Assembly: GCA_049517335.1 (NCBI GenBank)
Contig: JBEKSD010000003.1
Location: 32,185 to 96,184, forward strand
Origin: Candidatus Omnitrophota bacterium
Lineage (GTDB): Bacteria; Omnitrophota; Gorgyraeia; Gygaellales; Profunditerraquicolaceae
Reading direction: 5' to 3'
Length of the DNA: 64,000 nucleotides
Position numbers and translations under genes: made by a program. The notes under the pieces are model-generated. The model saw only the letters and a program-made list of their open reading frames with translations, was not told the origin of the DNA and made no database searches. Below are positions 12,837 through 20,104 of the stretch, piece after piece; position 1 is the first letter of the stretch; each line of letters begins with the position of its first letter.

Positions 12837-13274
12837 TTATATTTGATAAGTAAAAACTTTATTTGTGGTTACTACCTGCTTCGCCAAATCTTCAAAAGTT
12901 ATATTATCCACGATATCACTTGTTGCTTGGGCTACCTGTTTAAAAATATTCCTAAAGGTACATTTATAAATATCGGCGCACCCGGAATAATCTTTTTCAG
13001 TACATGCAATCGGTTCAAGTGGGCCGTCAATATACCTTATCAGATCACCTATTTTAATTTGAGAAGGATGTTTTGCCAGTAAATAACCGCCGACTTTCCC
13101 CCTGCGGCTCTCTACAAACCTGCCTCTTTTCAAGTCCAACAAAACCTGCTCTAAGAATTTAATCGGTATCTGCGCGTGACTAGCTAAATCGTGAATGGTA
13201 ACGATCTTGTCATAATTTATAGCCAGATCCAATACTGCTTTTAAAGCATAATCTCCGCGATATGTAATTTTCAT
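12837..13274 (-). CDS. Rrf2-family transcriptional regulator (CymR/IscR-like)
   Basis: The Rrf2 N-terminus reads MKITYRGDYALKAVLDL followed by a wHTH. The likely ATG is at 13274, with the GTGAGG SD upstream. The ORF track starts at a GTG 12 nt further upstream. Confidence 0.75.
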   Translation of the reverse strand: MKITYRGDYALKAVLDLAINYDKIVTIHDLASHAQIPIKFLEQVLLDLKRGRFVESRRGKVGGYLLAKHPSQIKIGDLIRYIDGPLEPIACTEKDYSGCADIYKCTFRNIFKQVAQATSDIVDNITFEDLAKQVVTTNKVFTYQI

Positions 13275-13314
13275 TTTAAACCTCACATCATGATTATGTC
13301 TATCAACTTAGTAG

Positions 13315-13362: not shown

Positions 13363-13653
13363 TCAAACAATCAGCTTTAGGGCTTCTTTGACTGGCTGGC
13401 CGGATTTTATTCCAAGCTTCGTTGCGGCAGGTGTGCAGGAATTAATTTTGGCTTTTAAAGCATCCGATATTGTGGCTACTCTCACTATCTTGGCGGCAGC
13501 GTCTCTAAATTTTTTAGCTACGCTTAAATTTAGATACCCGCACATAATATAACCTCTGCAGCCCTTCAAAAGAACAAAATTTTTAGCCTGCAGATTAGTG
13601 GAAAAAGCTTCAATATACCTTGTGCCTATTTTGATTTTCTTATATTCTTTCAA
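13363..13653 (-). CDS. DUF1805 (YunC-like) protein
   Basis: The segment LLKGCRGYIMCGYLNLSVAKK resembles the B. subtilis YunC core (KGYIMCGALDV). The protein is 96 aa. Confidence 0.55.
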   Translation of the reverse strand: MKEYKKIKIGTRYIEAFSTNLQAKNFVLLKGCRGYIMCGYLNLSVAKKFRDAAAKIVRVATISDALKAKINSCTPAATKLGIKSGQPVKEALKLIV

Positions 13654-13661
13654 CTTATGTC

Positions 13662-14573
13662 TTAATTTTTGAAGTTATGCTGGGCTAAATATTTAAAAGC
13701 GCTAAGACAAGCTTTGGAGCCTTCCCCTGCGGCAATAATAATCTGTTTCTCCGGCACGTCGGTCACGTCGCCTGTGGCAAAAACTCCGGGAATATTGGTT
13801 TCGTTATAACTATTCACTTTTATCTCGCCAAGTCGGTTTTTCTCTACGCCTGCGGCAAATTCGCTATTTGGGATAAGCCCTATCTCTACAAAAACTCCCC
13901 CTACGCCCAAGGTTTCTTCTCTATCCTTACGCTTCACTTTAATCCCGCTTACAAATTTATCGCCCAATATTTCAACTATCCGGCTGTTATTCCATATGCT
14001 AACCTTATCAGAGCTTTCAACCTTTTCTCTCATAATCGCATCTCCAACCAGCGAGGATTTTATATTTATCAAATAAACGTGCTTTGCGATCTTAATTAAT
14101 TGTAAAGCTGCATCCAGCGCGGAATTCCCCCCACCGATAACCGCGACTTCCTTACCGGAAAAAAGCGGGGCGTCGCATGTTGCGCAATAGGTAAGACCGC
14201 GGTTCCTGAATTCTTCTTCGCCTGCGACGTTAAGCTTCCGGGTCCTTTTTCCAGAAGCGATAATCAGGCTTCGCGCTTCATATTTACTTTTACCGGTTAT
14301 AACAGTAACTACATCATTTTCTTTTTTTAATTCAACAACTGTTTCATTTTCTCTTACCGGAATATTATACTTGCGCATATGCTCTTCAAATTTAAGCGCC
14401 AGTTCCGGCCCGGTAATAAACTGATAACCCGTGTAGTTCTCAATATCCCCGCTCCAGGCAGCCTGTCCGCCGATATCGCCCGTAATAACAAGCGCATTCA
14501 GCATTTTACGCGCCGCATAAACACTAGCGGTAATCCCTGCCGGACCTGCCCCTATAATTATTAAGTCATACAT
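13662..14573 (-). CDS. trxB: thioredoxin-disulfide reductase
   Basis: The FAD and NAD sites read GAGPAGITA and GGGNSALD. The redox-active motif is CATCD. Confidence 0.85.
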   Translation of the reverse strand: MYDLIIIGAGPAGITASVYAARKMLNALVITGDIGGQAAWSGDIENYTGYQFITGPELALKFEEHMRKYNIPVRENETVVELKKENDVVTVITGKSKYEARSLIIASGKRTRKLNVAGEEEFRNRGLTYCATCDAPLFSGKEVAVIGGGNSALDAALQLIKIAKHVYLINIKSSLVGDAIMREKVESSDKVSIWNNSRIVEILGDKFVSGIKVKRKDREETLGVGGVFVEIGLIPNSEFAAGVEKNRLGEIKVNSYNETNIPGVFATGDVTDVPEKQIIIAAGEGSKACLSAFKYLAQHNFKN

Positions 14574-14576
14574 ATT

Positions 14577-14810
14577 TTAGATACCAAGTGTCTGTTTTAT
14601 CTTTTCTTTATCAAACCCCACAATAACCGTACCCTCTATGTCAAGCACCGGTACGCCCATCTGGCCGGACTTCTTAGTCATTTCGTCGGCCTTTTCAGAA
14701 TTCACTGAAACGTCATAATCCTGGTAAGGGACATTATTTTCTTTTAAAAACTGCTTCGTCCTTATACACCACGGACAGGTAGGAGTGCTGTAAATCAAGA
14801 CGTTCTTCAT
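14577..14810 (-). CDS. glutaredoxin/NrdH-like small redoxin
   Basis: A CPWC active site in a thioredoxin fold of 77 aa. Confidence 0.75.
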   Translation of the reverse strand: MKNVLIYSTPTCPWCIRTKQFLKENNVPYQDYDVSVNSEKADEMTKKSGQMGVPVLDIEGTVIVGFDKEKIKQTLGI

Positions 14811-14826
14811 AAGGTTCCCCCTTTTC

Positions 14827-15303
14827 TTAAAGTGCGCTTTTTAGCTCTATAAGTTTCTGCAAATGAAGCTGCTCTTGGGCGATAAGCTGGTCAACAAGAG
14901 CAACATTGCCCCCCATTACCACTTTTTTCATGCCTTCATAAAAAATAATCGAATCCTTTTCAAACCCGATTCCCTTCTCAATTGCTTCCTTTTCGCTTTT
15001 TATCTTCTTTGCTACTTCTGAGCCTTTGCCCGCTTGAGTAAAAACATACTCCCCGGCCAGGGTTTTCATATAACTAAGATATTCCCCGGGATAACTTTCC
15101 ACCGGTTCATAATTTTCTACCGTAGAAAGAATCTGCTCAAATACTTTTATATGTTTTTTTTCTTCCCCGGCAAGGTAGCGGAATACCTCTTTGGCTTTTT
15201 TATGCTTAGACTGTTCATCCAAGGCGCGGTAAAAATCCCTGCCGTTTTTCTCAATCTGTATCCCGATCCCGACTATTTCGCTGCCGGAAAAAATATTTAC
15301 CAT
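14827..15303 (-). CDS. rubrerythrin-like ferritin-fold protein
   Basis: A ferritin-like diiron four-helix bundle with E..H-type repeats (AGEEKKHIKVFE..., ...AQEQLHLQKL). There is no rubredoxin domain. Confidence 0.55.
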   Translation of the reverse strand: MVNIFSGSEIVGIGIQIEKNGRDFYRALDEQSKHKKAKEVFRYLAGEEKKHIKVFEQILSTVENYEPVESYPGEYLSYMKTLAGEYVFTQAGKGSEVAKKIKSEKEAIEKGIGFEKDSIIFYEGMKKVVMGGNVALVDQLIAQEQLHLQKLIELKSAL

Positions 15304-15327: not shown

Positions 15328-15786
15328 TTATTTCAAGGGCGGCGGCGTAAGGTTTACTGCTTCTTCCACCTCAACCTCGAGCAAATACTCCGGTTTTGGA
15401 AGCATGGCCTCGGGATGACGAGAATGCCCTTTTTCATCACGAATATTCTTAAGCAGGCGCTGGGTAAGACGACTGGTAATCCGGTCCTCCCAAGCCTTGA
15501 TAATCTCAGGTCTCAATTCTTCCGGAGGCATAATTCTCCCCTTGCCTTTTAAACAATAGCCGGTAAATTTATGCTCGTTTATCGCAGAAATACTCACATA
15601 GTGATTATGCAACAGGTTTTCATAAGTCCTTGCGCAATAAACATCCAGTAGATAAACCCTGCCGTTATTCTTAATATCGACTATCCCCTTGCATGAAATA
15701 TGGGGATAGCCGTTCTTATCAATGGTAGCAATAACGACAAATCCCTGATTTTGGAAAAAGTGCATTATCTCTTCGCTTAATTTCAT
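15328..15786 (-). CDS. pyridoxamine 5'-phosphate oxidase-family (FMN-binding split barrel) protein
   Basis: A PNPOx-like fold of 152 aa (FVVIATIDKNGYPHIS...). Confidence 0.5.
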   Translation of the reverse strand: MKLSEEIMHFFQNQGFVVIATIDKNGYPHISCKGIVDIKNNGRVYLLDVYCARTYENLLHNHYVSISAINEHKFTGYCLKGKGRIMPPEELRPEIIKAWEDRITSRLTQRLLKNIRDEKGHSRHPEAMLPKPEYLLEVEVEEAVNLTPPPLK

Positions 15787-16973
15787 TTATTTATTTTTGA
15801 CGCAAAGCTGCGCCCGAATTCAAAGCAGGCCTTCAAATCAGCTTCTGCGGGAGCATATTTTATCCCGAGTCCCGGCTGGAATACTTCAAGCCCTGCCTTT
15901 TTCAATAACTCTTCTATTTCTGCGACCGCTCCTCCTGCCCAGCCAAACGAACCAAAAGCTGCAGCCAGGCGCTCCTTTACCTTGAATCCTTTTACAAGCT
16001 CCAAAAATGCGGCAATATTCGGAAGTATATCATTATCATGAGTGGAAGAACCGAAAAGGAAACCTTTAGCGCTAAGCATATCCTTAACCACTTCCGTCCT
16101 GTCGGTTGAGGCGATATCATAAATTTTCGCGCTCACCCCTTCGCTTACAATACCTTCCAGTATCTTGCGGGACATTTCTTTTGTTGCTCCCCACATTGTC
16201 TCATAAACAATGATAATTTTAGGCTCTGTTACATTTTTTGCCCAATTCAGGTAAGCATTGATGATTTTTGCCGGCTCCTTCCTCCAGATAACCCCGTGGC
16301 TGGGCGCAATTATCTTAATAGGAATGTTCATTTTATGGACTTCTTCAATCTTACGCAGGATTACCGAACCCAAAGGCCACAGTATATTGGCGTAATATTT
16401 TTCCGCCTCATCCATGAGCGCGCAACTGTCTACTTCATCGTCAAAACGCTCTACTGTCGCGTAATGCTGACCAAAAGCATCGTTAGGCATAAGAAGCGCA
16501 TCTTGCGGGCAATAGGTAAACATGCTGTCCGGCCAATGGATCATCGGTGCTTCAATAAACTTTAAGGTTCGCTTTCCTAATTTTAATTCATCTCCGGTTT
16601 TAACTACCTGAAAATCCCAATTCTGGTAATAATGCCGATATAAACCCTCCTTGCACTTGGCAGTGCCGATAACTTTTGCCTTAGGGATTAACTTCATCAA
16701 CTCAGGAAGCGCTCCGGAGTGGTCGGTCTCAACGTGGTTAGCTATAACATAATCTATTTTCTCAATTGGGATAATCTGCCTGATATTCTCAATAAGCTCA
16801 TGGCCAAAACTTCCCAGTACCGTATCCACTAAAGCGGTCTTTTCATCCAGTATCAGGTAGGAATTATACGTAGTTCCTCTGTTCGTGGTGTAGGTGTGGC
16901 CGTGGAAATTGCGCACATCCCAGTCTATGGCTCCCACCGAATAAATATCAGGAATTATTTTCAAATTAGGCAT
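15783..16973 (-). CDS. fprA: flavodiiron protein (FprA / rubredoxin:oxygen oxidoreductase type)
   Basis: It combines a metallo-beta-lactamase-like domain (HVETDHSGALP) with a C-terminal flavodoxin domain. The 396 aa length and the adjacent rubredoxin gene fit FprA. Confidence 0.85.
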   Translation of the reverse strand: MPNLKIIPDIYSVGAIDWDVRNFHGHTYTTNRGTTYNSYLILDEKTALVDTVLGSFGHELIENIRQIIPIEKIDYVIANHVETDHSGALPELMKLIPKAKVIGTAKCKEGLYRHYYQNWDFQVVKTGDELKLGKRTLKFIEAPMIHWPDSMFTYCPQDALLMPNDAFGQHYATVERFDDEVDSCALMDEAEKYYANILWPLGSVILRKIEEVHKMNIPIKIIAPSHGVIWRKEPAKIINAYLNWAKNVTEPKIIIVYETMWGATKEMSRKILEGIVSEGVSAKIYDIASTDRTEVVKDMLSAKGFLFGSSTHDNDILPNIAAFLELVKGFKVKERLAAAFGSFGWAGGAVAEIEELLKKAGLEVFQPGLGIKYAPAEADLKACFEFGRSFASKINK

Positions 16974-17003: not shown

Positions 17004-17162
17004 TTATATCTTTTCGAATTGGTCCTTTGGTACTCCGCACTCAGGGCAAACCCAGCTATCGGGAAGTTTTTCAAAAGGCGTGCCGGGTTGTATGTCTTGG
17101 GTTGAATCCCCTATTGCGGGATCATAAATATATCCGCAAACTGTGCACCTGTATTTATCCAT
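17004..17162 (-). CDS. rd: rubredoxin (52 aa); not in the ORF track because it is below the 60-aa cutoff
   Basis: Manual translation gives [52 protein letters not shown], with two CxxCG knuckles typical of rubredoxin. Confidence 0.85.
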
Positions 17163-17175
17163 TAAGACCTCCTTA

Positions 17176-17688
17176 TTATTTATGGGTAAAAAGCCCGGTT
17201 AGCTGCGCTTCTTCTATTACGTGACCTGCTATCGCTTCCGTAAACGCCCGGTTATCCGGCGGCGATTTAAATTTCAATTCGGTATCGAGGGCAAATATCT
17301 TAAATATATAGCGGTGTGTCCCCGAGGGCGGGCAGGGGCCGTGGTAAGCATTGTCTCCCGCGCTGTTTACTCCCTGATCGCCCGGCACACTTGCCTCTGT
17401 TATACGCGAAAGGGACGGGATATTATAAACAATCCAGTGCGTCCATAATCCTGCTGGCGCATCAGGGTCAACCACAAGCAAAGCAAGCGTCTTGGTATTG
17501 GCAGGTATATCTTTGATGGACAACTCGGGGCTTAGATCATCGCCCCGACAGGAAAATCTTTGGGGTATATATTCATTATTGCCGAAAGAAGGGCTGGTTA
17601 ATTTCATATTCGCGCTCCAGGCTAAATTAATAAAAAAAATTCCACTTAAAAAACTTAGGAGCAAAAAAGAAACTACGGGCTTATCCAT
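17176..17688 (-). CDS. YbhB/YbcL-family PEBP (Raf-kinase-inhibitor-like) protein, secreted
   Basis: A signal peptide precedes the PEBP motifs DPDAP..W.HW and GPCPP...HRY. Confidence 0.75.
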
Positions 17689-17972
17689 TTTTGGATATTA
17701 TAAACCCGCGTATTTACTTTGTCACCTTTTATTTCGGAAGGAAGGTCTCTTTTTAATTGAAGCCATTTTCCTTCGCCTATGCACTGGCGCGCGCTCGCGC
17801 ACCAATCCACACAGGCGGACAATCTTTCTCTTGCGGTCCATATACCGCAAGAGGGGCATTTAAGCTTAATTTCATCAGAAAATATCTCAATCAAATACCC
17901 GCAGTTATAACAACTTAACGTTTCTATCTTAATATTTCTTTTATCCTGCCCCGGGCATTTATTTATCAGCAT
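17673..17972 (-). CDS. Cys-rich small metal-binding protein (zinc-ribbon plus CxxxCx5C) of unknown function
   Basis: MLINKCPGQ...SCYNCGY...KCPSCGIW...SACVDWCASARQCIGEG carries 8 Cys in 99 aa. The ATG overlaps the Rrf2 stop (TAATG). The ORF track extends to an upstream start at 18065 inside the Rrf2 gene. Confidence 0.5.
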   Translation of the reverse strand: MLINKCPGQDKRNIKIETLSCYNCGYLIEIFSDEIKLKCPSCGIWTARERLSACVDWCASARQCIGEGKWLQLKRDLPSEIKGDKVNTRVYNIQKWISP

Positions 17973-18376
17973 TATTCCCGCTTTCCAAGAGAAGCGATTG
18001 TTATTAAACTCAATTCTTTTTTTACTATCTTCTCTATTCTTCCCAATTTTGCGCTTAAAGCGCATACCTTAACCGAAGGGCAGACTTTTGCCCTAAAAAT
18101 ACATTCATTGAGTTTCAACGGGCCTTGAAATATCTCCGCCAGTTTCACAAGATAAATCTTTACCGGTGCGACTTTAAGAGAAAAACCTCCACCCTGGCCT
18201 CTATGGGATTTAAGTATGCCTTCCTTATTTAAAACCTGCAATATCTTCCTTAAAAACGGCCCCGGCATCTTCAATTCTTTAATCATCCTTGAAACAGGGA
18301 CAATTTTATCTTTTTGTTTGGCGATGTAGCATACCGCCCTTAAGGCGTAATCCGTATCCCTGGTAATTAATTTCAT
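17972..18376 (-). CDS. Rrf2-family transcriptional regulator with a 3-Cys cluster-binding motif (IscR/NsrR-like)
   Basis: The Rrf2 N-terminus reads MKLITRDTDYALRAVCYIA, followed by a wHTH. The Cys-bearing segment is ECIFRAKVCPSVKVC. Confidence 0.75.
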   Translation of the reverse strand: MKLITRDTDYALRAVCYIAKQKDKIVPVSRMIKELKMPGPFLRKILQVLNKEGILKSHRGQGGGFSLKVAPVKIYLVKLAEIFQGPLKLNECIFRAKVCPSVKVCALSAKLGRIEKIVKKELSLITIASLGKRE

Positions 18377-18392
18377 CTTTCTCCTTTTTTTT

Positions 18393-18435
18393 AGGGACGT
18401 TTTTCAAGCGAGGTTAAAGCTTGAAAAACGTCCCT
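18393..18435. promoter_or_regulatory. perfect 17-bp inverted repeat with a 9-nt spacer (agggacgtttttcaagc-N9-gcttgaaaaacgtccct) in the Rrf2 5' region; candidate operator or regulatory hairpin
   Basis: Read directly from the sequence. The stem extends to 19 bp with flanking T/A. It lies 17-61 nt upstream of the Rrf2 start, in a divergent intergenic region. Confidence 0.5.
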
Positions 18436-18595
18436 AATTTTAAGGCAGTTTAGAGTCGTACCTTAGGACACTTTACTGCAGCCCTCCTTACAATGGGCTA
18501 CCGGGCGAAGCATATATTTTACGGTTATATCCATTCTAGCCCTCCTTTTGGATTAAAGATACCATATTAGTATCATTTGTCAAGAAAAATTTTTC

Positions 18596-18631: not shown

Positions 18632-19315
18632 ATGAATAGAATTGCTTTAATAATAACTATATTGGCCGTGAATTTAGTCGCTGCCGGCAGTGCTTTCGCT
18701 GCTTCTGAACCTGCGGCAATAACCTTTCCGGAGCAAGCCCAAGCCTTTGCTGAAGAAGTCGCGCAAGGTAAACCTAAAGAAACCGACGTAACTGTTGTAA
18801 AAGAAGAAAAATGCTTAATCGGTATTGAATTCCTTTCCGGTTACGGCCGGGCAAACAAAATCAGGCGTAAAGAAGACATAAAAGAGATCCCTTTCATGGT
18901 TGATTTTGACCTTAACCTTAAACCTTTATTAAAAAAAATTAATTTAAATCCCCCTGTATTAGCACAATTCCAGATTGAGCCTTTCGTTACCGACATATAT
19001 GAGCCGGTTAATGAGAACATTGAGGGAGGACTGGCTTTTTGGTTCAAATTTGGCCTGCTTCCGGAATCCTTCAAAATACAGCCCTATGCAAAATTCGGAG
19101 CCGGCTTTGATTATATGACTCTACATACTATCAATCAAGCCACCCAATTTAATTTTATTTCGCAGCTCGCCTGTGGCGTGCATTACTTCTTCCTGAAAAA
19201 TACCGCGCTTACTATTGAAGGCCACTACCGCCACCTTTCTAACGCAGGGATAAAAGAACCTAACCGCGGGATAAACACATATTTTATTCTCGGCGGGCTT
19301 ACCTGGCGGTACTAA
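18632..19315 (+). CDS. PagL-like lipid A deacylase / acyloxyacyl-hydrolase-family outer-membrane protein
   Basis: A signal peptide, beta-barrel character and the H-x-S-N-A/G catalytic-type motif (HYRHLSNAGI) near the C-terminus. Confidence 0.5.
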   Translation: MNRIALIITILAVNLVAAGSAFAASEPAAITFPEQAQAFAEEVAQGKPKETDVTVVKEEKCLIGIEFLSGYGRANKIRRKEDIKEIPFMVDFDLNLKPLLKKINLNPPVLAQFQIEPFVTDIYEPVNENIEGGLAFWFKFGLLPESFKIQPYAKFGAGFDYMTLHTINQATQFNFISQLACGVHYFFLKNTALTIEGHYRHLSNAGIKEPNRGINTYFILGGLTWRY

Positions 19316-19695
19316 TTCATACTTACCAAAACTATTCCGGTTATAATAAGGAAAGTCCCCAGCCATCGTTTTGAGCCCACTTTTTCCTTTAGGATAAACT
19401 TTGAGACAAGGGCAATGAGGATATAGTGCATGCTATCGGCTGAGAAGGCAAAACTAAGGTCAGCCTTGGAAAGCACGAAAAGCCAGATACAAAGGGATAG
19501 AACGGTAAAGCAAAACCCGATCCAGATACGGGGAATAACAATAAGTTTGATAATGAACCTGAATATCTTCTTTATGCTAAAGGCCACAGGAAGTTCCATG
19601 GAATTTATTGCGGACTTTAGGAATAACTGATTTATCGTATCACAGATACTGGTGAGCATAATCAGGAAAAGAATAAAAATGAGCCCTGGCTGCAT
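19312..19695 (-). CDS. small 4-TM EamA/SMR-like membrane protein (ArnE/ArnF-like flippase subunit)
   Basis: 127 aa and hydrophobic, with a C-terminal WLGTFLIITGIVLVS motif typical of the DMT/SMR half-domain. A paired paralog lies next to it. Confidence 0.55.
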   Translation of the reverse strand: MQPGLIFILFLIMLTSICDTINQLFLKSAINSMELPVAFSIKKIFRFIIKLIVIPRIWIGFCFTVLSLCIWLFVLSKADLSFAFSADSMHYILIALVSKFILKEKVGSKRWLGTFLIITGIVLVSMN

Positions 19696-19696
19696 A

Positions 19697-20104
19697 TTAA
19701 AGGACCCCTTTCTCTTCCGTACTTAGCGAAACAAAAATAACGCCCGTAAGTATCAGTAATATCCCTAGCCACCTGAGTAAGCCTATCTGTTCATGAAGGA
19801 AGATTATAGAAACTACCGGGACGAGGATATAGCTAAAGCTTGCTATCGGGACAGCGACGCTTAAATCAATCTTGGAAAGAATCGTTGACCAGATAACAAA
19901 GGTAAGGAATACCGATAAGAAAGCAATCCAGAGATAAGGAGAAAGAGAGACAGTCTTAAGAAATATAATAAGCTCGGAAAAACTGGATATTCCAAGCCTG
20001 TCCGCGTTTAGTGCGCTTTTTTTAAAACAAAAGTTCGTAAATGTTTCCAGAAAATCGGAGAATATTAAAAACGATAATATTGTAATAGTCAGTTTTTTCT
20101 TCAA
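19697..20104 (-). CDS. small 4-TM EamA/SMR-like membrane protein (ArnE/ArnF-like flippase subunit)
   Basis: 135 aa with the C-terminal motif WLGILLILTGVIFVS. It is divergent from the DegT aminotransferase gene. Confidence 0.55.
   Translation of the reverse strand: MKKKLTITILSFLIFSDFLETFTNFCFKKSALNADRLGISSFSELIIFLKTVSLSPYLWIAFLSVFLTFVIWSTILSKIDLSVAVPIASFSYILVPVVSIIFLHEQIGLLRWLGILLILTGVIFVSLSTEEKGVL

Follow-up and report, generated by a model that had tools for sequence, protein, structure and literature searches.

An eight-cysteine mini-protein family in Rrf2- and CRP/FNR-associated stress-defence clusters of Omnitrophota and other uncultured anaerobes

A 99-amino-acid (aa) open reading frame (ORF) with exactly eight cysteines lies directly behind a gene for an Rrf2-family regulator in a 64,000-nucleotide (nt) stretch of a Candidatus Omnitrophota genome (assembly GCA_049517335.1, contig JBEKSD010000003.1), which is referred to throughout as the window. 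Judged by its sequence conservation, this mini-ORF is a real gene whose conserved family has no name, and it stands first or second in a long operon on the minus strand. Equivalent clusters in other uncultured anaerobes almost always include a member of the family. That the mini-protein is a core member of stress-defence clusters under a cluster-type Rrf2 regulator or an HcpR-like regulator of the CRP/FNR family is firmly supported, and it is probably a component of nitric oxide (NO) and oxygen stress defence that has not yet been recognised. The best explanation, to which we give an even chance, is a stress operon repressed by Rrf2 in which the mini-protein is a redox/electron-relay or metal-centre-handling effector with two four-cysteine (Cys4) sites. 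Membership of the regulon is the well-supported part of this explanation, while the biochemical role is its weak step.

A conserved eight-cysteine family

The eight cysteines of the mini-protein are arranged as C6, C21-x2-C24, C39-x2-C42 and C54-x3-C58-x5-C64, which is the pattern of a CxxC...CxxC ribbon followed by CxxxCx5C that the first-pass annotation of this DNA had described. A search of a large protein database returned 95 homologues with E values from 1e-17 to 1e-63, most of them 73-85 aa long and distributed over Omnitrophota, Chloroflexota/Dehalococcoidia and other metagenome-assembled genomes (MAGs) of several phyla. Relatives are encoded in 330 species in a scan that used one genome per species, and a profile search of 1.84 billion representatives gave 924 clusters (50% identity) at E <=0.001, with 318 of them at E <=1e-10. 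The possibility raised in the first-pass annotation that the small ORF might not be conserved in related genomes is excluded by this distribution. Across an alignment of 30 homologues, 18 residues are invariant over a core of about 75 aa, including all eight cysteines, and among 132 diverse members the eight cysteines, G8, E29 and W57 are all invariant. The family signature can be written C-P-G ... C-x2-C ... E ... E ... C-x2-C ... C-x2-W-C-x5-C-x-G, and the window protein carries every invariant residue.

Conservation is confined to residues 1-76, and the last ~24 aa, which overlap the downstream gene for a PEBP-family protein, are specific to the window. This unconserved 24-aa tail over the PEBP start, together with a weak Shine-Dalgarno (SD) sequence (GGGA), is what might be said for regarding the mini-ORF as spurious and the true downstream gene as starting elsewhere. 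With homologues in several phyla at E values down to 1e-32, 18 invariant residues that include the eight cysteines, and a conserved start and operon position, such a reading is scarcely credible. A longer, 130-aa version starting at 18065, which appears in a mechanical ORF list, was dropped because its N-terminus is unconserved and the related loci start 3-6 codons before the CPGQD motif.

No Pfam or NCBIfam model matched the mini-protein above its cut-off, in line with the failure of the first-pass annotation to recognise the family, and only weak matches to generic zinc ribbons and to the rubredoxin-like part of rubrerythrin were seen. Tests for a rubredoxin (PF00301, no match; RUBY_RBDX PF21349, 17.2 vs 26.5 bits) and for an RNA-binding ribbon of the DUF1610 or HVO_2753 type (PF07754, no match at E <=1; NF011481, 14.5 vs 61) both failed, and a Pfam search of the window protein did not find an HD domain (PF01966). 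Look-ups of the clusters revealed no cultured-organism or experimentally studied member and no informative name, and literature searches returned nothing specific on the eight-cysteine family or its type of operon. One related mini-protein (L065, 7965-8420) bears a C-terminal extension, ...LPCAIAFKIARKLKVTPRQVGDIANRLNIKITSCQLGCF, which has no Pfam match and has the look of a small, cysteine-containing module resembling a helix-turn-helix.

Many homologues are called 'phosphohydrolase' by NCBI, and the origin of this name can be traced to domain fusions. Among the 150 top-scoring representatives there are 23 proteins of 196-261 aa that carry the mini-domain at the N-terminus. The partner is an HD domain in P0108, P0123, P0186 and the genome locus L079, a low-molecular-weight phosphatase/ArsC-type domain in P0158 and a hemerythrin domain in P0239; other fusions have HD-like helical C-terminal domains that lack the HD motif. 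The name has thus been carried over from mini::HD fusions of ~230-250 aa to stand-alone proteins, for which it is a propagated misnomer; most family members, the window protein among them, lack an HD domain. An apparent fusion of a CRP protein to the mini-domain in L017 proved to be an artefact of a masked run of N.

An AlphaFold2 model built on a 132-sequence alignment (pLDDT 82.8) shows a four-stranded ribbon (strands 16-20, 27-31, 36-38 and 45-47) bearing both CxxC knuckles, followed by helices 53-57 and 61-74, which bear C54, C58 and C64. The predicted fold is therefore that of a zinc-ribbon or rubredoxin-knuckle beta-sheet with two helices behind it, and with two CxxC knuckles on a beta-hairpin sheet the mini-protein qualifies as a generic zinc ribbon. 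A PDB search with the family profile matched only ribbons of the S27e/RpoP type (E >=0.006), and a Foldseek search gave no significant match. So many invariant cysteines, eight within 75 residues, imply a pair of Cys4 metal sites. Zinc and rubredoxin-type iron are both compatible with the knuckles of the ribbon (CxxCG and CPxCG), and C6 would form the second site with C54, C58 and C64. A remote cysteine combined with C-x3-C-x5-C recalls labile sensor clusters.

Gene neighbourhoods and regulators

The context of the mini-gene was compiled from 80 genome loci and the window (81 in all) by clustering the ORFs within 5 kb of it, naming the clusters with Pfam and NCBIfam and counting each cluster once per locus. 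An adjacent ferredoxin is the most frequent neighbour (50 of the 81 loci), ahead of Rrf2 (43), rubredoxin (32), a prismane-family enzyme directly downstream (27, of which 25 are hybrid cluster protein (Hcp) and two are CooS-like), an FNR-like reductase (25), a flavodiiron protein (23) and superoxide reductase (20). SufC is present in 10 loci and SufB in six, and in L019 and L037 the two directly follow the mini-gene. Besides the mini-gene, the equivalent clusters hold a ferredoxin of ~263 aa, Hcp (or CooS), superoxide reductase, peroxiredoxin and SufBC. The co-occurrence with Rrf2 in other genomes, which the first-pass annotation had proposed looking for, is therefore real, with Rrf2 in more than half of the loci. 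Its broader suggestion of a redox- or metal-responsive module is supported, with one refinement as to its members: the neighbours in the window and the 80 related loci describe a module for redox, NO and O2 stress, but the PEBP gene that had been counted with it is found in only four of the 81 loci and is not core.

In loci of the Omnitrophota type, the usual order is (permeases), Rrf2, an optional ~263-aa ferredoxin, the mini-protein and an optional class III Hcp; next come superoxide reductase, a Met-rich membrane protein, rubredoxin, an FNR-like reductase and a flavodiiron protein, and then PNPOx-like, rubrerythrin-like, glutaredoxin and thioredoxin reductase genes, with SufC/SufB, peroxiredoxin and a ferritin-VIT1 type protein in some of them. 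Within this order the mini-gene is tightly coupled to what precedes it. Counting the window, 43 loci have Rrf2 or the ferredoxin immediately before the mini-gene. In 31 of these the mini-gene starts inside the end of the preceding gene, and in a further 10 the distance to its stop is no more than 12 nt; where Rrf2 itself is the direct upstream neighbour (15 loci, again with the window), 13 show an overlap or a gap of <=12 nt. In the window, the TAA stop of Rrf2 (17974-17972) and the ATG of the mini-ORF (17972-17970) share one base at 17972. The TAATG junction noted in the first-pass annotation is thus correct and is one case of a general tight coupling.

Loci of the Dehalococcoidia type have a CRP/FNR protein as regulator instead. 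The spacer between its gene and the mini-gene is 107-185 nt long in most of them (85 and 269 nt in two) and holds a conserved box, TATGTGATTTAAATCATAG, which is followed by the mini-gene, with a strong SD sequence, and the ferredoxin. The box lies ~90-110 nt upstream of the mini-gene in L005, L021, L023, L026, L039, L046, L050, L058, L061 and others, and its centre is ~41.5 base pairs (bp) upstream of a -10-like hexamer, as counted on L046 and L050. In sequence, it resembles the HcpR consensus wTGTGAnnnnnnTCACAw (PMC1274295) and looks like an HcpR-type class II activator site for the mini-gene and ferredoxin; it is placed as would be expected from the activation of hcp-frdX that has been predicted for HcpR (PMC1274295, PMC545781).

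The ferredoxin that accompanies the mini-protein belongs to a family of at least 8000 proteins at E <=1e-10 and consists of a 2x[4Fe-4S] N-terminus and a C-terminal domain, PF27217 (AF_0155), for which the PDB holds no structure. Its homologues are MAG proteins named only 'ferredoxin', '4Fe-4S binding protein' or 'ATP-binding protein', and its C-terminal domain shows the motifs CPKLDD and EVPCC (e.g. L072 7171-8004 and 49 other loci; L084 6605-7378). The frdX gene has been described as a ferredoxin-like gene adjacent to hcp; both are strongly induced by NO in anaerobes, and knockdown of either renders C. difficile sensitive to NO (PMC12915319). The ~263-aa protein fits the published description and is possibly FrdX.

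The association with prismane-type enzymes extends beyond Hcp and beyond the stand-alone protein. CooS-type CO dehydrogenase is encoded directly downstream of the mini-protein or of an HD-like fusion in L044 (8287-10191), L078 (8285-10189) and L093 (6778-8688), and this replacement of Hcp by CooS in some lineages suggests that the mini-domain tracks the whole prismane/CODH superfamily. One fusion locus holds Rrf2, a Fer4 protein, mini::HD, a cupin and Hcp, with a divergent flavodiiron gene, and another holds Rrf2, a small ribbon protein, mini::LMWPc and a 257-aa ferredoxin. Other fusion members stand upstream of CooS-type CO dehydrogenase or within clusters for carbon monoxide dehydrogenase/acetyl-CoA synthase (CODH/ACS), and one HD-like fusion is followed by NifU with overlapping stop and start. 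The Met-rich small membrane protein of these loci (cluster c15; ...MMKCPMMCMMNQGKGQMMKKCMAPGMM...; e.g. L072 11443-11787) regularly lies just upstream of rubredoxin (L002, L014, L018, L072 and others); it has no Pfam match and is absent from the window.

The Rrf2 protein of the window scores well above the family cut-offs (PF02082, 91 bits vs 30; TIGR00738, 89.5 vs 73.3). Its best NCBIfam similarities are to the SUF regulator, RirA, NsrR and IscR, with the equivalog cut-offs missed for NsrR (NF008240, 37.8 vs 182 bits) and IscR (37.1 vs 207.55). Cysteines occur at positions 16, 92, 99 and 105, giving a motif C92-x6-C99-x5-C105 to which D9 can be added. In a PDB search the protein aligns with RsrR and with the NsrR of S. 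coelicolor (ScNsrR, 5N07), and C92, C99, C105 and D9 fall on C93, C99, C105 and D8 of 5N07, which we take to be the [4Fe-4S] ligands of ScNsrR in that structure. All four residues are 100% conserved in 42 orthologues. The three-cysteine motif that the first-pass annotation had interpreted as the mark of an Fe-S or NO sensor therefore holds up, and three C-terminal cysteines with a fourth ligand are what a cluster-binding Rrf2 sensor has. By analogy with NsrR, IscR and RsrR, the state of the cluster should control the binding of Rrf2 to DNA.

Ahead of the Rrf2 gene lies a promoter-like site (Table 1) whose cTTGACA...TATCAT arrangement is kept upstream of the Rrf2 gene in ~40 related loci, and a palindromic operator is laid over it. 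The family consensus of this operator is AATGATAC-N7-GTATCATT; with <=3 mismatches it is found upstream of Rrf2 in 41 related loci and the window, usually once per locus, and the 64-kb window contains a single copy. An operator in this position has the geometry of an autoregulated repressor. The upstream palindrome that the first-pass annotation had named for a binding test of Rrf2 is probably the 19-bp inverted repeat listed in Table 1. As an operator this repeat was rejected, since it is specific to the window and only a few related loci, such as L025, L053, L056 and L062, have strong hairpins there, of unrelated sequence.

The window operon, its leader and the PEBP gene

The operon of the window runs from a leader micro-ORF through Rrf2, the mini-protein, PEBP, rubredoxin, a flavodiiron protein and a PNPOx-like protein to rubrerythrin-, glutaredoxin- and thioredoxin-reductase-like proteins (Table 1). 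The flavodiiron protein reaches 507 bits with NF008887, under the equivalog cut-off of 635. The rubrerythrin-, glutaredoxin- and thioredoxin-reductase-like genes have homologues in 12-18 related loci, and the genes of the operon tail (13363-15303) are separated by 3-24 nt only. The homologous gene clusters of L002, L032 and L048 likewise end with a homologue of the other Rrf2 gene of the window. A tblastn search of the 64-kb window found no ferredoxin of the ~263-aa family, Hcp, superoxide reductase, FNR-like reductase, permeases or SufBC. An hcp-frdX type regulon, with Hcp and a ferredoxin-like partner, is thus lacking in the window and present in most related loci, and the window operon is a reduced version in which the mini-gene directly follows Rrf2, as in 14 other loci. 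Upstream of the operon, two tandem genes for small EamA/ArnE-F-like membrane proteins (19312-20104, minus strand) hold a position that is kept in eight related loci; in the window, a gene for a PagL-like outer-membrane protein (18632-19315, plus strand) is inserted between this pair and the Rrf2 promoter.

Table 1. Features of the window operon and its surroundings (on the minus strand, apart from the operator and the inverted repeat, which are given without a strand; positions are those of the window)
Feature	Position	Length	Remarks
Promoter-like site	18556-18583		TTGACA 18583-18578, 16-nt spacer, TATCTT 18561-18556; TG before the -10; 10/12 match
Palindromic operator (putative)	18555-18577	23 bp	AATGATAC-N7-GTATCTTT; occupies the whole -35/-10 spacer and extends over the -10
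Leader micro-ORF	18463-18534	23 aa	MDITVKYMLRPVAHCKEGCSKVS; strong SD AAAAGGAGGG; between operator and Rrf2 gene
H-type pseudoknot (candidate)	18442-18469	~27 nt	Overlaps the stop codon of the micro-ORF
Perfect inverted repeat	18391-18437	19 bp, 9-nt spacer	5' untranslated region between leader and Rrf2 SD; unique to the window
Rrf2-family regulator	17972-18376	134 aa	PF02082 E 9e-26, TIGR00738
Eight-Cys mini-protein	17673-17972	99 aa	Core residues 1-76 at 17745-17972; unconserved tail at 17673-17744
PEBP / YbhB-YbcL family protein	17176-17688	170 aa	PF01161 E 3e-38, TIGR00481
Rubredoxin	17004-17162	52 aa	PF00301 E 5e-25; NF045768 cut-off passed
Flavodiiron protein (O2/NO reductase type)	15783-16973	396 aa	ODP + Flavodoxin_1 domains; no fused rubredoxin
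PNPOx-like flavin-binding protein	15328-15786	152 aa	PF01243 E 6e-14; homologues in 18 related loci
Rubrerythrin-like protein	14827-15303		Operon tail
Glutaredoxin-like protein	14577-14810		Operon tail
Thioredoxin-reductase-like flavoprotein	13662-14573		Operon tail
DUF1805 protein	13363-13653		Last gene of operon tail
Other Rrf2 gene	12837-13286	149 aa	PF02082 E 3e-33; 76-nt gap from DUF1805

Of the 43 loci with Rrf2, 24 have the leader micro-ORF (e.g. L002 6616-6699), which has the window copy among them and follows the pattern MD[IV]T[IV][RKH]YMLRPVAHCKEGC[SC]. A metagenome scan with the back-translated peptide recovered at least 120 contigs (L095-L214), mostly with the leader upstream of Rrf2. 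Over the first 20 codons the entropy by codon position is 0.32/0.15/1.08, and mean amino acid identity is 86.5% vs 78.1% for nucleotides; as the variation sits at third codon positions, the micro-ORF appears to be translated. In the sample chosen by its leader, 72 of 97 contigs have Rrf2 as the next gene, and 32 of 54 encode the mini-protein no further than 2.2 kb away, which provides independent confirmation of the association between Rrf2 and the mini-protein. Elsewhere, the leader precedes rubredoxin, peroxiredoxin, a string of PEBP, rubredoxin and flavodiiron genes, GH5-like hydrolases, and BirA-like and azoreductase-like proteins (read from sequence, some confirmed by BLAST), and it is thus not specific to the operon of Rrf2 and the mini-protein.

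At the 3' end and stop codon of the micro-ORF, conservation is of the nucleotides, and a candidate H-type pseudoknot can be drawn. Stem 1 pairs gtc (18469-18467) with gac (18457-18455), stem 2 pairs aggta (18463-18459) with tgcct (18447-18443), and the A-rich loop, TAAAC in the window, is invariant as UAAAC. The consensus is nGUC-CY-GGGCA-Y-GACn-(N)UUAAAC-UGCCC. The motif was first seen on 24 sequences and was later evaluated on columns 5-32 of a larger alignment (A4). Among 123 ungapped sequences, 87.4% of the cells pair, with compensatory changes in eight of the 10 pairs (58 cells), and none of 500 shuffles reached any observed measure. Controls in which the structure was slid along the alignment pair at 32-50%, a comparison that favours the pseudoknot, as it was derived from the same sequences on which it was tested. 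In most sequences the two outermost positions of stem 1 do not pair. In L158, L170 and L183 a hairpin is inserted within the A-rich loop. The leader matched no Rfam 15 family, even at E <=10, and it might, among other possibilities, act in translation-coupled attenuation, sense a ligand or encode a functional micropeptide. The inverted repeat that follows it in the window (folding z = -10.1) could influence how stable the RNA is, or it could be a palindrome that was inserted there.

The PEBP gene is clearly assigned to its family (PF01161, 131.7 bits vs 24; TIGR00481, 114.6 vs 57.75). Its N-terminus reads like a signal peptide; an internal start at Met28 is also possible because the homologue in L007 starts there, and a signal peptide is seen in two of the three homologues in other loci but is missing from the third. 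The gene belongs to the same operon in the window, L002, L007 and L052. Its treatment as an insertion unique to the window was rejected on account of this recurrence, and it is best regarded as an occasional passenger and not a core partner. The 16-nt overlap between the end of the mini-ORF (17673) and the PEBP start (17688) is present as the first-pass annotation had stated, whose description of the arrangement is thereby confirmed in full. Within the unconserved tail of the mini-ORF, nine nt upstream of the PEBP start, lies a near-consensus sigma-70-like site, GTGACA-17-TATAAT (17725-17697, minus strand), which may be a promoter of PEBP's own. With a variable tail and a local promoter-like site, the overlap looks like a local accident and not a conserved coupling.

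Proposed role and relation to known systems

The best explanation of these clusters can be set out as a sequence of steps. Rrf2, carrying an Fe-S cluster of the NsrR/IscR type, would bind the 23-bp palindrome over its own promoter and keep the operon repressed. Damage to or loss of the cluster, through NO, O2 and reactive oxygen species or a shortage of Fe-S clusters, would lead to derepression, upon which the stop/start overlap would allow the mini-protein to be made together with Rrf2. The four and four cysteines of the mini-protein would hold two metal centres, one in the ribbon as a rubredoxin-like Fe(Cys)4 or a zinc site and one at C6, C54, C58 and C64. Such a protein would be an effector and not a transcription factor, most likely a small redox/electron-relay or metal-centre-handling protein at the service of the regulon's Fe-S and di-iron stress enzymes, with ferredoxin and Hcp as its foremost partners. 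As ferredoxin and Hcp are missing from the window, the mini-protein would there pair with the rubredoxin/flavodiiron branch or with partners encoded elsewhere. An accessory role is ranked highest because the mini-gene is a target behind the CRP box and is usually separated from Rrf2 by the ferredoxin, and because the company of ferredoxin and prismane enzymes is kept even when the domain is fused.

Several observations weigh against this explanation. On sequence, an all-zinc structural protein would fit the mini-protein equally well, and the core is approximately neutral to slightly basic by residue count, unlike the acidic rubredoxins. The window encodes no ferredoxin of the family and no Hcp within 64 kb, and with a true rubredoxin beside the flavodiiron protein an extra electron carrier is not obviously needed. 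The mini-domain also occurs at the N-terminus of HD, hemerythrin and low-molecular-weight phosphatase fusions, and small N-terminal domains in such fusions are often sensors. The NifU and CODH/ACS neighbours of some relatives fit maturation or repair as well as they fit electron transfer. Lastly, the regulator also falls short of the equivalog cut-offs for RirA (64.6 vs 193 bits) and the SUF regulator (65.6 vs 110.65), as well as those for CymR and HypR.

These observations give substance to the alternatives. It is conceivable, if somewhat unlikely, that the mini-protein is a sensor module in which C6, C54, C58 and C64 hold an NO- or O2-labile Fe-S cluster or redox-active thiols and modulate a partner. 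In the fusions this partner would be the attached HD, hemerythrin or phosphatase domain, and for a mini-protein that stands alone it would be the regulator or ferredoxin encoded with it. Three close cysteines and a remote one would make an arrangement like that of FNR and WhiB-like proteins. The mini-gene always stands right after the regulator, or the regulator and ferredoxin, in two unrelated regulator systems, and it is the most constant gene of clusters whose enzymes vary; the tight junction with Rrf2 in 13 of the 15 direct-neighbour loci and the N-terminal position in the fusions fit as well. Yet a ferredoxin gene intervenes between regulator and mini-gene in most Rrf2 loci, and in Dehalococcoidia the mini-gene occupies a separate unit behind the CRP box, which makes it a target gene. 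It is also improbable that a single protein of this size could dock on folds as different as Rrf2 and CRP/FNR, and many of the fused C-terminal domains, having no HD motif, offer no clear output activity.

A metallochaperone, or a factor for maturation or repair of the Hcp hybrid cluster, the CooS C-cluster or damaged [4Fe-4S] clusters, is an unlikely reading that draws on the same neighbours. The mini-gene lies directly upstream of both kinds of prismane enzyme (Hcp in 25 loci, CooS in L044, L078 and L093), Suf genes are present in ~10 loci and come next in L019 and L037, NifU overlaps the HD-like fusion, and the best NCBIfam similarities of the Rrf2 protein are to SUF and iron regulators. 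Against this, the mini-gene is also found in loci, the window among them, with no prismane enzyme or Suf genes nearby, and it shows no Pfam, NCBIfam or fold similarity to Nfu, A-type or CooT/CooJ carriers. A purely structural zinc ribbon that binds nucleic acid, such as a factor associated with translation or transcription, is suggested by weak matches of profile and fold to S27e, RpoP and zinc-ribbon RNA-binding proteins, by JGI names of this kind (DUF1610-type, RpoP-like) and by the roughly neutral to basic core. These matches all lie under the family cut-offs and span the 30-residue ribbon only, the four extra invariant cysteines and the helical half have no counterpart, and the context is uniformly one of redox-stress enzymes without translation or transcription genes, so that this reading is improbable. 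A wider formulation, in which the eight-cysteine domain is an undescribed metallo-module for the prismane-superfamily and Fe-S stress systems of strict anaerobes, either a new small Fe-S or Fe(Cys)4 domain that senses NO or O2 or a maturation or electron-donor factor for Hcp and stress-type CooS acting with an FrdX-like ferredoxin, and in which the operon also has an undescribed leader of upstream ORF (a conserved peptide of 20 aa) and H-type pseudoknot, can be put forward only tentatively.

The effector role nevertheless has a natural place in what is known of these enzymes. The electron supply of Hcp and FrdX and the assembly or repair of their clusters are still unclear, and a strictly conserved, cysteine-rich third component beside the two would be an obvious candidate for the missing piece. 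Hundreds of genomes, from Omnitrophota, Dehalococcoidia, Aminicenantes and other groups, have the mini-gene between regulator and stress enzymes, and its product is a concrete, small and easily expressed protein for testing. Also defined here are a distinct Rrf2 subfamily with its operator, the origin of the 'phosphohydrolase' name and a candidate new RNA/peptide leader. Even if the mini-protein were only a zinc-ribbon accessory, a domain of unknown function would have gained a useful annotation.

Rrf2-controlled operons for NO and O2 stress and hcp-frdX regulons are already known, whereas the eight-cysteine family has no Pfam or NCBIfam model and the leader no Rfam model. The regulator resembles NsrR, IscR and RsrR in its winged helix, its three C-terminal cysteines with an N-terminal Asp, the palindrome over its own promoter, and target genes for NO/O2 defence and Fe-S proteins. 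It differs from NsrR in its spacing, C-x6-C-x5-C instead of C-x5-C-x5-C, and it reaches no equivalog cut-off. The operator AATGATAC-N7-GTATCATT is likewise different from the published NsrR motif, gATGyAT-N5-ATrCATc (PMC1274295). The Dehalococcoidia loci recall the HcpR/hcp-frdX system of Desulfovibrio and clostridia, with a CRP/FNR regulator, a TGTGA-N6-TCA(C/T)A box, and a ferredoxin-like gene and hcp as targets (PMC1274295, PMC545781, PMC12915319); the published regulons do not contain the eight-cysteine mini-protein, whose gene is the first target in the Dehalococcoidia loci.

For the mini-protein itself, the closest comparison is to rubredoxin and rubrerythrin, which have in common with it a small beta-sheet bearing two CxxC(G) knuckles at a distance of 14 residues, and a place near di-iron stress enzymes. 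Unlike a rubredoxin, it has four further invariant cysteines and a helical half, and it is not acidic. In the HD-domain phosphohydrolases, from which its database name derives, only the fusion relatives carry the HD domain, and the window protein is without it. Two further likenesses are analogies only, as Pfam matches to ScdA_N and YgbA_NO are both absent from the mini-protein. The mini::hemerythrin fusion P0239 mimics the architecture of YtfE/RIC, in which ScdA_N precedes hemerythrin, and YgbA of E. coli is a small cysteine-rich protein regulated by NsrR (PMC9052748); like the mini-protein, these are small or N-terminal cysteine-containing modules that are joined to, or regulated together with, di-iron and Hcp systems of NO stress.

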